Source: Escherichia coli
Lineage (GTDB): Bacteria > Pseudomonadota > Gammaproteobacteria > Enterobacterales > Enterobacteriaceae
Direction: 5' to 3' (one strand)
Assembly: GCF_003334355.1 (NCBI RefSeq)
Contig: NZ_QOWP01000009.1
Length of the DNA: 64,000 nt
In this document: positions 34,320 through 36,959 of the stretch, one piece after another
How the letters are laid out: each line of letters opens with the position of its first letter
How positions within the stretch are numbered: position 1 is the first letter of the stretch
The notes under the pieces: model-generated
The model's database searches: none
What the model saw: the letters and a program-made list of their open reading frames with translations, nothing else
Told to the model about the DNA's origin: nothing
Translations under genes and position numbers: made by a program

Positions 34320-34604
34320 TCAGGGCAAGCCGAAGGTAGCCTTTTTTATTTCGTAATCCTGTAGATATTCTTCCAGCGGCTTTGCCGTTCCCAGAGAATG
34401 AATTTCACCACTGTCTTTATCAATAATAAAAGGTGCGTTACCAGCTAAGCGCGCGGCCTCATCTCCAGTTTCGAGAAATTCTCGTGCTTCGAAACAGAAA
34501 TACCAGCCCTGGCTAAAGCGTCCATGTAGAGTAATGACGACCGGGAGATCTGCATCATCAAGGTAATGGTTCGCTTTCGCGAATGCGTCGTGATAAGTAA
34601 TCAT
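34320..34604 (-). CDS. yrhB: Small heat-stable protein YrhB
   Basis: 94 aa ORF (MITYHDAFAKANHYLDDADL...); position matches YrhB. Confidence 0.85.
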   Translation of the reverse strand: MITYHDAFAKANHYLDDADLPVVITLHGRFSQGWYFCFEAREFLETGDEAARLAGNAPFIIDKDSGEIHSLGTAKPLEEYLQDYEIKKATFGLP

Positions 34605-35053
34605 AATTATAATAAATATTATTGTTGAGTGTTATATTATTATTCCTGTGTGATACATTGAGCAAAGACGCGTTCATCTTCGTCAAAGATATTATTAAAT
34701 GCTGGTTTTGAAAAAAGTTCATCGGATAAGATATAGTCACGAAATAAGTATCTGCTAATATTTTATGATTTCTTTTTCAGAACGTCGAACGGGATTTTCT
34801 TATTTAAGATATCAGAATCTTATGATTCGGGTAAAATTCTAAATAAATCAACATGTCATTAAAATCATCATAGCCATTAGCTATTTCGACTAAAATAGAG
34901 ACTACATGTCTTCGGTCCATCTCACTTAAGGAGTGTAGTTCCGTTGTAAGTTTTTCCATAGCTTGCACTGCTAAATTTCGAACAAGGAATTTTCTGCTGG
35001 TAATCTCTAAAAAGATGGCATGGTTTACAATGATTTTTGTTTCCTTTTGATTA

Positions 35054-35548
35054 TTATGAACAACTGTCCATGATTTCGTTTAAGAATGAAGAGAAATCAC
35101 TAAACGAACTGAATATATTTTCTGTGCCGATATTATCTCTAATTTCAAAAAAGTTACTTTTAATGTCATAAGTAAATATTGAAATGCTATCATCCCCGAT
35201 CACTAACCGTTCTTGTAGATCAGGGTTTATGAAATCATCATTATTTCTATAAAATTCATTTACGGCAAAAAGGTTTTTAACTGAAGGTTCTGGAATCGAG
35301 AGGCTAAATAATCGTAATCCATTAACTTCGAATCCATCCATTGCTCTTAAAAAAGTAAGATAATCAGGTTGATTCTTAAAAAGAATACTAACTTCATTAC
35401 ATAACTTCTCCAGGCAATTAGTTGAATTAGAATTAAATTCTATTTGGATTATACTTTCAATAAATGATTCCTTGAGCGGTGCTTCAAATGGATAGTCTAA
35501 ATCATTCATCATTTTTATTAATTTATTTATTTGGGTTTTAGTCATCAT
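35054..35548 (-). CDS. yrhA: Putative immunity protein for the YhhZ nuclease toxin (intact YrhA-like, 164 aa)
   Basis: 164 aa acidic ORF immediately downstream of yhhZ with ATGA start/stop overlap (35545..35548); AT-rich; position matches yrhA. Immunity role is inferred from the gene arrangement. Confidence 0.7.
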   Translation of the reverse strand: MMTKTQINKLIKMMNDLDYPFEAPLKESFIESIIQIEFNSNSTNCLEKLCNEVSILFKNQPDYLTFLRAMDGFEVNGLRLFSLSIPEPSVKNLFAVNEFYRNNDDFINPDLQERLVIGDDSISIFTYDIKSNFFEIRDNIGTENIFSSFSDFSSFLNEIMDSCS

Positions 35549-36723
35549 TTTGTGTGGTCCATAATATTTTTCATGGGAGGATAAATTGAGCCAGATGGAA
35601 TGGCCCAGGGAGTGATTTTGCTTTCACCTACTAATATTCCCTTAGCTATTCGTGATTGTATGTTAGTAAAAACTTTATGATATGGTTCGTTTTCGATTAA
35701 TACTAAATTTTCGAAATCATTAGTACCACCATCATCTAGAGATAGTTTATGGTGAACATTATAATTTAGAGGAACATTGCCCTTTCTCATTCTTAAAAGG
35801 TCTTCGGCGTTGAATCTTCCAGATGCTTCGGAGGTTTTTGCAAGTTTGATAAGAAAATTTTTTCTTACAGTTTTATTAAACTCCTTTCGTAAGTTAGCTA
35901 AGTCTTTTGAAGGTCTCTTAATGTATATTATTTCTATTATGTCTATACCATCAAGAAGTTTTTGTTGACCTCTAAGTTTGCCTAAGTAACTATTTATTTC
36001 TGTATATGTATCAACATTATAACGCTTTGTTAAAAGAATAGATGCTGTTGCTATCGCTATGCCCGCTGTTTTTTCATTTAGTATTTGATCATAGCCTTTT
36101 ATTGCATCTCCACCCAGTTTTTCCGCAGTATCTCTGAATCCTTCAATGTTCCCATTGTATACGCCACCAGCAGCAAGTAGCCTGCCAATAGCTTTGCTGT
36201 TTAACGTTTTGAAACGATTATTTGTTTGGTTTTTTGAATTTGGTAAAAACAAACGGTTATAATTTTCAGGGAGTGCCAAATAGCTGAACTCGGTATTTGC
36301 GATAAGATGTTGACAGAGGATAAATTCATAACTAATAGTTATTTTTTCTGTATCCAGTTGGTTTTCAATGATCTGGTGATGAATAGCCGATAAAAAAGCG
36401 CCTCTTAGTTGTATATAATAATACTTTTCCCATCTACCAAATCTATTTATTCGATAGAAGTCAAATCCCATAAATAATTGTTCATTATTGTTAATGGAAT
36501 TAATAAATAATGGAGTGCTTTTATCAATTAATTTACAAAATGTTATACCATGGAACTGTGAACCAAGCCCCGTATTATTAATATTATTTAAGAGTGAGAA
36601 TGTAAATGTTTCATCCTCATGCCCGCTCTGCCAACGATTACCTGTAGACTCAGAAGTCCCACAACCTGCGGAGATGCTTCCTTGTTGTTCTCCCGTTACT
36701 GTCAGGTAAACAATATTACTCAT
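35545..36723 (-). CDS. yhhZ: Hcp-domain protein fused to C-terminal HNH nuclease (Hcp-ET-like orphan T6SS effector)
   Basis: 392 aa ORF; N-terminal ~160 aa shows the Hcp pattern (MSNIVYLTVTGEQQGS...KLIDKSTPLF), C-terminus carries an HNH/beta-beta-alpha-Me motif (NYNVHHKLSLDDGGTNDFENLVLIENEPYH); markedly AT-rich versus flanking genes. Confidence 0.85.
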   Translation of the reverse strand: MSNIVYLTVTGEQQGSISAGCGTSESTGNRWQSGHEDETFTFSLLNNINNTGLGSQFHGITFCKLIDKSTPLFINSINNNEQLFMGFDFYRINRFGRWEKYYYIQLRGAFLSAIHHQIIENQLDTEKITISYEFILCQHLIANTEFSYLALPENYNRLFLPNSKNQTNNRFKTLNSKAIGRLLAAGGVYNGNIEGFRDTAEKLGGDAIKGYDQILNEKTAGIAIATASILLTKRYNVDTYTEINSYLGKLRGQQKLLDGIDIIEIIYIKRPSKDLANLRKEFNKTVRKNFLIKLAKTSEASGRFNAEDLLRMRKGNVPLNYNVHHKLSLDDGGTNDFENLVLIENEPYHKVFTNIQSRIAKGILVGESKITPWAIPSGSIYPPMKNIMDHTK

Positions 36724-36959
36724 CCCTGAAAAGTCCTTTTATGGCATGCTATTTTATCAATGGCACTATTATGCTTGTTAATTGTTATTTATTTACTCCA
36801 GGAAATTGTAGGCGTATATATTAAAAAATAAAATATTACACTTTAGGAAGTAATTATGAGGTAAATCTCAATATATTTATTGGGAAAATAAATACATTAA
36901 AGGAAGGTATGCCGATTTTGAATGACACCCTTTTCCCATCTCAGAAAAAGGGCACTATC

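Follow-up and report, generated by a model that had tools for sequence, protein, structure and literature searches.

The present analysis suggests that the AT-rich spacer between yrhB and yrhA of Escherichia coli is a decayed, start-less orphan immunity cassette and that the annotated gene yrhD is the longest ATG-initiated fragment of it, a reading to which we assign a probability of roughly 80%. Specifically, the ancestral gene would have encoded a protein of ~80 residues folded as a three-helix bundle, whose relatives in other proteobacteria have genes that directly follow, and overlap with, the sequence for the C-terminal toxin tip of CdiA/filamentous-haemagglutinin-type proteins, and whose role would have been to bind and neutralise a nuclease tip of the Tox-REase-5 type. 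On its arrival in E. coli, or in what survived there, the cassette presumably lacked both its toxin and a usable start codon, and it would have been left behind the Hcp-HNH toxin gene yhhZ in an array ordered yhhZ, yrhA, relic, yrhB. The annotated yrhD would then begin at an internal methionine of a dead frame, and the sequence would now be drifting neutrally, different lineages having gained different nonsense mutations and lost the ATG. We infer that the copy in E. coli is without a functional product.

The yrhB–yrhA spacer and its genomic setting

The window, by which we mean the whole 64-kb stretch of E. coli DNA that was analysed, contains the following features of the locus:

34320..34604, minus strand: yrhB, matched by Pfam Imm35 (E = 4.6e-23); closes the array as another orphan immunity gene
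34605..35053, no strand: the AT-rich spacer between yrhB and yrhA, 449 bp, 30.5% GC
34804..34959, minus strand: the yrhD ORF, 51 codons plus stop, without a Shine-Dalgarno sequence
34807..35079, minus strand: a stop-to-stop frame of 91 codons that contains yrhD; its first ATG, GTG or TTG is the GTG at 34968
34864..35049, minus strand: the putative relic core, aligned to positions 4-65 of the family HMM built without E. coli sequences (see below)
35054..35548, minus strand: yrhA, NCBIfam NF038335 'YrhA family', intact in the window
35112..35141, minus strand: a sigma-70-like element, TAGAGA-18-TATATT, inside the 3' part of yrhA
35545..36723, minus strand: yhhZ (annotated tssD), an Hcp domain with a C-terminal HNH/His-Me nuclease; the toxin gene heading the array

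The region is the E. coli ggt–yrhB–yrhA–yhhZ–yhhY segment, with all four y-genes on the minus strand. GC content drops from ~55% in ggt to ~30% across 34600 to 36900, between island flanks of ~50-60%, and the spacer, AT-rich as the preliminary description had it, resembles the rest of the yhhZ–yrhA island in composition, unlike the flanks. From the Hcp-HNH, YrhA family and Imm35 content, together with this drop in GC, we conclude that at this locus a toxin gene heads an array of immunity-type genes, in AT-rich DNA that was acquired horizontally. Such 'Hcp-ET' proteins, YhhZ itself included, have been treated as type VI secretion system (T6SS) polymorphic toxins (PMC6730261, PMC5714182), and yrhA is presumed to be the immunity gene of the Hcp-HNH toxin encoded upstream. 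The same domain content contradicts a role of the E. coli yhhZ-yrhAB cluster in methionine-to-cysteine conversion, which is given in one report (PMC3309015) that apparently mixed up the names with the unrelated yrhA/yrhB of Bacillus subtilis.

The spacer is carried, free of indels, by 3809 of 5426 complete E. coli genomes. Where it is missing, IS1-mediated deletion is the explanation in at least some cases: in strains PKF8 and HL15, an IS1 stands in place of everything from 71 nt into the spacer (window-equivalent 34675) to or into yhhY, and yrhD, yrhA and yhhZ are deleted. The preliminary description had K-12 carrying an IS1 insertion in this spacer, but its IS1E (L002 3369-4136) lies ~106 nt away: the insertion is at window-equivalent 35159..35167, within the final third of yrhA, and has a target duplication of 9 bp. 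As yrhA is intact in the window, the window strain is not K-12.

The minus-strand ORF of 51 codons was recovered with exactly the sequence first quoted for it, although it had been taken for unannotated: it is RefSeq yrhD, found at the same position and on the same strand in IAI1 and K-12 and named in thousands of E. coli genomes, and its product is Swiss-Prot P58037 (PMC3575317). The window copy is identical to WP_001307436.1 ('protein YrhD') at 50 of 51 residues, the one difference being A24V. The further statement that the spacer holds no ORF of 60 aa or more applies to frames lying wholly within it; a 60-aa ORF opening with GTG (34558..34740, minus strand) straddles the start of yrhB. The lack of an obvious Shine-Dalgarno sequence was borne out, there being no anti-Shine-Dalgarno pairing within 22 nt upstream of either the yrhD ATG or the in-frame GTG at 34968.

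By length alone, the yrhD ORF is within chance expectation, since an ATG-initiated ORF of at least 51 codons arose in 963 of 5000 dinucleotide shuffles of the region (19%); a stop-free frame of 91 codons was reached in 170 of 5000 (3.4%). The reality of yrhD as a putative gene remnant rests on homology. Six promoter-like sites were found where the shuffles gave an expectation of 5.9, terminator-like sites were likewise not enriched, and an Rfam scan returned only sub-threshold snoRNA matches attributable to chance. Genomic SELEX has placed a constitutive RpoD promoter upstream of yrhD in K-12, along with an H-NS site (PMC3946193), and the TAGAGA-18-TATATT element at 35141..35112 is the hexamer pair of that promoter.

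Three rare E. coli variants from metagenome and NCBI entries (P0005, P0013 and P0001) have YrhA sequence fused to the upstream part of the relic frame, by a deletion in P0005, apparently by a frame change in P0013 and by loss of an upstream stop in P0001, such that the 91-codon frame is sometimes called as part of a longer 'protein'.

Homology to a toxin-linked family of ~80-residue proteins

The whole 91-codon frame was used as the query in an exhaustive phmmer (HMMER) scan of 1.84 billion cluster representatives, which matched two full-length proteins, P0019 (80 residues) and P0020 (79 residues), with 39-40% identity to the E. coli frame and BLASTP E values of 1e-15 and 6e-14. They align from frame residues 9 and 14 onwards, respectively, ~30 codons before the annotated methionine of YrhD at frame residue 41. 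A profile search added five further members of 80-88 residues (P0021-P0024 and P0031), one of them from Sphingomonas sp. LM7, and another member, of 82 residues, is encoded in Citrobacter sp. Awk 4 (L017 6617-6865); pairwise E values of the E. coli frame against family members range from 1e-15 to 4e-13. An unbiased HMM of 80 positions, built from eight non-E. coli members only, was then run against all 1,850 stop-to-stop frames of the window. The yrhD frame was its sole match (E = 8.9e-16, 54.8 bits, positions 4-65), the next best frame scoring E = 3.6. At this E value, and over 62 of 80 positions, the match to an independent family cannot be due to chance; the alignment thus identifies the E. 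coli frame as a homologue of the ~80-residue family and rules out noise in AT-rich DNA, the second origin that had been offered for the ORF.

The alignment also indicates what the annotated gene does not contain. Thirty codons of the relic core (35049..34960) lie upstream of the yrhD ATG, which aligns to internal family position 34 ('AMEQL/ALEQL'), and opposite the first methionine of the family stands CAT (35058..35056), a codon adjoining the stop of yrhA (35056..35054). In none of 16 E. coli sequences does an ATG, GTG or TTG precede 34968 within the frame. At the other end, the alignment is poor over the C-terminal ~15 residues of the family ('FVxxLPxxLGI'): the E. coli frame can be fitted to them only with an insertion, shares few residues (L, P, I), and is outside the HMM envelope there. 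AlphaFold2 predicts P0019 with confidence (pLDDT 89.7) to be a three-helix bundle with helices at residues 2-19, 27-42 and 46-76; judged by this model, translation from the annotated ATG would leave out helix 1 and half of helix 2.

Searches of curated collections added no further relatives. Neither YrhD nor P0019 had a Pfam match even at E <= 10, and no NCBIfam family matched, relatives included. When the frame was run against 5.8 billion proteins in a word-indexed search, nothing beyond near-identical E. coli sequences came up; it took the exhaustive HMMER scan to bring out the relatives. In the PDB, neither the immunity profile nor the toxin C-terminal domain (CT, described below) had a sequence match, and Foldseek of the immunity model against the PDB gave only generic helical bundles, none of them significant. 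A resemblance to YrhA or to other immunity families, which had been suggested as a check, was not found: BLASTP against YrhA gave E = 18, and no Pfam immunity family matched. An origin of the relic as a duplicate of a neighbouring gene was considered and rejected, as BLASTP against YrhA, YrhB and YhhZ revealed no real similarity, the value for YrhB (E = 0.027 over 30 residues) not being significant. Among the representative genomes of other species there was no close relative of the E. coli frame, the sole match being a mis-binned 4-kb contig (CABHOW010000200.1) from a metagenome-assembled genome labelled 'Flavihumibacter sp.'. On this contig the frame is identical to the common E. coli yrhD allele at 84 of 84 residues and yrhA is intact upstream; its presence in a Bacteroidota bin is almost certainly E. 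coli contamination.

Outside E. coli, the ~80-residue gene is linked to a toxin in five contexts. It stands directly after the same toxin CT, with the pattern 'WVDEN...RFDG...DRK...QLGITNIxVKVV', in L009, L010, L012 and L013 and in the Citrobacter loci L017-L019. The gene and the end of the coding sequence of a large protein share 11 nt in L009 and L012; the tail of that large protein is '...WVDENASMS...RFDGLDDGVLxDRK...QLGITNITVKVV' up to its stop codon, and in the short contigs L010 and L013 the same toxin tail lies just upstream. In Citrobacter, the toxin CT and the ~80-residue gene make up an orphan module, which a few genes separate from a complete CdiA gene (TPS, Fil_haemagg_2, PT-VENN) upstream. 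In L011, an orphan ~80-residue gene follows a deaminase-like toxin tip and its 127-aa partner and precedes a TPS-domain gene. Given this conserved gene linkage to the toxin CT, the family is best read as the probable cognate immunity protein of a CdiA-borne, TseT-like nuclease toxin, the tip of which is predicted to adopt a Tox-REase-5 (TseT-like, PD-(D/E)xK-type) nuclease fold. The E. coli frame, which abuts the yrhA stop codon, is not downstream of such a CT. The toxin HMM was searched against the loci of the relatives, and E. coli was covered by blastn of the Citrobacter toxin/immunity module, which had no match in any complete E. coli genome.

The CT of the Citrobacter toxin module (P0056, L017 6001-6621) is also similar (E = 6.6e-9) to the last ~120 residues of PDC-M17A, a candidate defence protein family in PADLOC, which hints that the same nuclease module may be used in candidate anti-phage systems. 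In Pseudomonas gessardii (L020 4920-6515), an orphan array behind a CdiA-type gene contains the same toxin CT in truncated form, without the ~80-residue immunity gene, and one gene further (170-aa product) come a Gln_amidase fragment and then an Imm35 gene 53% identical to E. coli YrhB. As this array combines the toxin CT with Imm35, the cassettes that adjoin in E. coli also co-occur in contact-dependent inhibition (CDI) arrays.

Decay and variation of the probable relic within E. coli

Four haplotype groups were sampled, with 16 sequences; the genome counts given for them rest on haplotype identity and not on per-genome inspection:

Haplotype A (window, IAI1; K-12 protein identical): at least 99% identity to the window spacer; frame intact; 2785 complete genomes
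Haplotype B (L026-L029): ~97%; yrhD intact with four amino-acid changes; 3 complete genomes
Haplotype C (L003, L004, L022, L025): ~95.5%; nonsense mutation Y39*; 413 complete genomes
Haplotype D (L005-L008, L023, L024): 92-94%; nonsense mutation L23*, mostly also ATG to ATA; ~486 complete genomes

The whole 91-codon frame is open in haplotypes A (~73% of carriers) and B. The members of haplotype A are at least 99% identical to each other, so recent common ancestry accounts for their intactness as much as constraint does. Counted in this way by haplotype identity, nonsense mutations and loss of the ATG affect ~900 of 3809 genomes, roughly a quarter of carriers. The ten haplotype C and D loci inspected all have yrhD marked as a pseudogene in RefSeq, and at the same ten loci yrhA is intact in ten and yrhB in nine. 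Since no haplotype has a canonical start at the N terminus of the family, this start was missing before the haplotypes diverged.

The pattern of substitution was compared among the parts of the locus, variable codons being given as synonymous-only/amino-acid-changing:

yrhD (51 codons): variable codons 0/14; 11.8% of sites polymorphic
Upstream homologous part of the relic: 15.2% of sites polymorphic, distributed 6/3/6 over the codon positions
Whole relic (84 codons): variable codons 3/24; 13.1% of sites polymorphic
Non-coding spacer between yrhD and yrhB: 12.4% of sites polymorphic
yrhA: variable codons 10/9; 4.3% of sites polymorphic; pN/pS 0.16-0.38, constrained
yrhB: variable codons 11/14; 9.9% of sites polymorphic; mostly constrained

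Fisher tests set yrhD (p = 0.0009) and the whole relic (p = 0.0018) apart from yrhA plus yrhB. The polymorphic sites of yrhD fall on codon positions 1/2/3 in the numbers 8/6/4, without third-position bias. Among the 16 sequences there was thus no sign of purifying selection on YrhD, and polymorphism was like that of flanking non-coding DNA; the relic evolves neutrally within E. coli. Collectively, the frame is similar in sequence to the ~80-residue family, and it has no start of its own, no adjacent toxin and no trace of purifying selection, and it is therefore a relic of that family and not a working member.

These results sustain the proposal, made in the preliminary description, of a decayed extra immunity or toxin gene, by virtue of the family homology, the toxin linkage elsewhere, the lost start and the nonsense mutations. 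The case against that proposal was to have been an ORF that is not conserved among strains in a spacer that resembles no toxin or immunity gene; the first of these holds, the small ORF being disrupted in haplotypes C and D, whereas the second does not, as the spacer does resemble an immunity-type gene.

Other features of the variation concern the spacer and the toxin gene. The 449 bp have no indel across L001-L008 and L022-L029 despite up to 7.8% divergence, which is unusual for neutral-looking DNA. yhhZ has an internal stop in two haplotype D loci (L006 and L007) in which yrhA and yrhB are still intact, and comparison with haplotype C gave 14-18 non-synonymous and 3 synonymous changes (pN/pS 1.25-1.6), which suggests that the toxin is under relaxed or diversifying selection. 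Between yrhD and yrhB there is another protein-like open frame, 59 codons long (34643..34819, minus strand), overlapping the 3' end of yrhD by 16 nt and stopping ~38 nt before the yrhB ATG. It reads DSDILNKKIPFDVLKKKS, then glutamine or a stop, then NISRYLFRDYILSDELFSKPAFNNIFDEDERVFAQCITQE and two stop codons; haplotypes B, C and D keep it uninterrupted, and the TAA at 34765..34763 is confined to haplotype A, the window included. This frame has no relatives in Pfam, PADLOC or a plasmid tblastn search. It may be the remnant of a toxin tail that once preceded yrhB. Specifically, the Gln_amidase toxin tail that precedes Imm35 in Pseudomonas was tried as the source of the 199 bp between yrhD and yrhB and was rejected, there being no similarity and no Pfam or PADLOC match.

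Alternative readings and relation to known toxin/immunity systems

Several readings other than decay have to be weighed, one of which is that yrhD encodes a functional small protein of 51 residues from its annotated ATG, possibly a neofunctionalised immunity fragment. The entries in RefSeq and Swiss-Prot present it as a protein, the ORF is intact in ~73% of carriers and remains so in haplotype B despite four amino-acid changes, and the promoter detected upstream in vitro (PMC3946193) means that the region may be transcribed. We nevertheless consider this unlikely: the ATG has no Shine-Dalgarno sequence and corresponds to an internal residue of the family, so that helix 1 and half of helix 2 would be missing from the product; 19% of shuffles yield such an ORF; all 14 variable codons change the amino acid, without third-position bias; and two independent nonsense mutations and the loss of the ATG have accumulated in ~900 of 3809 genomes (by haplotype identity) while yrhA and yrhB stay intact. 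A near-full-length immunity protein of ~75 residues, started in haplotype A at a non-canonical ATC (35034) or ATT (35031) and protecting against the Tox-REase-5-type CdiA toxins of competitors, would fit the open 91-codon frame of haplotypes A and B, a length reached in only 3.4% of shuffles, and an AAGGA (35046..35042) does lie 7-10 nt upstream of these in-frame codons. Orphan immunity genes that protect against non-self toxins are known, which gives this idea a precedent. It is very doubtful all the same: E. coli very rarely starts translation at ATC or ATT, the AAGGA is destroyed in most haplotype B, C and D sequences (GAA to GTA or ATA, E13V/I), the upstream part of the frame is as polymorphic as non-coding DNA (15.2%; 6/3/6), haplotypes C and D carry stops, and no complete E. 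coli genome contains, at the DNA level, a Citrobacter-like cognate toxin module.

Taken more broadly, either the 91-codon frame from a non-canonical start or the 51-aa piece could be translated in haplotype A into an active product, as a cross-protective orphan immunity protein against Tox-REase-5-type CdiA toxins (of Citrobacter, for example) or as a neofunctionalised small protein, in which case the nonsense alleles of B2-like and other lineages would be secondary losses; we regard this as decidedly improbable. Hardly credible is the view that the ORF arose purely by chance in AT-rich, H-NS-bound, horizontally acquired DNA and that the spacer serves only to regulate yrhB, as a promoter or a site of silencing. 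The length of the ORF fits chance, promoter-like hexamers lie upstream of yrhB, and the region has been described as AT-rich 'promoter island' DNA with H-NS binding (PMC3661553; H-NS also PMC3946193), but the family homology (E = 8.9e-16 over 62 of 80 positions) refutes a chance origin of the ORF, promoter-like sites are as numerous as expected (6 versus 5.9), and no Rfam family matched above threshold. Were part of the spacer to have a regulatory role, this would agree with, and not replace, its being the relic of an immunity gene.

Orphan cdiA-CT/cdiI and rhs-CT/immunity modules occur downstream of polymorphic-toxin genes, and the E. coli relic shares several of their features, being a small immunity-type gene of low GC in a tandem array behind a toxin gene, without a cognate full-length toxin; moreover, it is homologous to the gene of such an orphan module in the CdiA locus of Citrobacter (L017/L018). 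Unlike these modules, the relic lacks both a start codon and a preceding toxin-CT fragment, evolves neutrally, carries lineage-specific nonsense mutations and sits in a T6SS Hcp-toxin locus and not in a CDI locus. For the toxin fold, the closest analogue is TseT-TsiT, the T6SS Tox-REase-5 effector and immunity protein of Pseudomonas aeruginosa (PDB 7dym, 9oz0). The resemblance is limited, however, as the toxin CT has only 11-12% identity to TseT and is not matched by Pfam Tox-REase-5, the ~80-residue three-helix family has no significant structural match in the PDB, TsiT included (Foldseek), and in the contexts seen the CT is delivered by CdiA/TPS proteins, whereas TseT is delivered by the T6SS. 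The window yhhZ is like the Hcp-ET toxins (reviewed in PMC6730261) in being an Hcp-HNH fusion followed by immunity-type genes. The relic, however, is not the cognate immunity gene of this Hcp-HNH toxin, since it has no similarity to YrhA or YhhZ and its relatives have a different toxin partner. YrhB (Pfam Imm35), the adjoining orphan immunity protein of the same array, also has counterparts in CdiA orphan arrays with the same toxin-CT fragments (L020), but it is intact, mostly constrained and without sequence relationship to the relic.

The gene yrhD has been listed in K-12 as an 'uncharacterized protein' for about two decades, and the present study gives it an origin as a probable start-less fragment of an orphan immunity gene. 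The results argue for annotating yrhD as a pseudogene and not counting it among the small proteins of E. coli. As yrhD was already catalogued and dead orphan immunity genes are of a familiar kind, this is an annotation-level result that leaves the understanding of such systems unchanged. In the literature searched, the origin of yrhD, the case for a pseudogene and the definition of the toxin/immunity pair were not found stated. That pair, a by-product of the analysis that is absent from Pfam and NCBIfam and has no name, would consist of a CdiA-borne tip of predicted TseT-like Tox-REase-5 fold and the ~80-residue three-helix protein, and is widespread in proteobacteria. Furthermore, the locus illustrates how T6SS- and CDI-associated immunity cassettes mix in one array.
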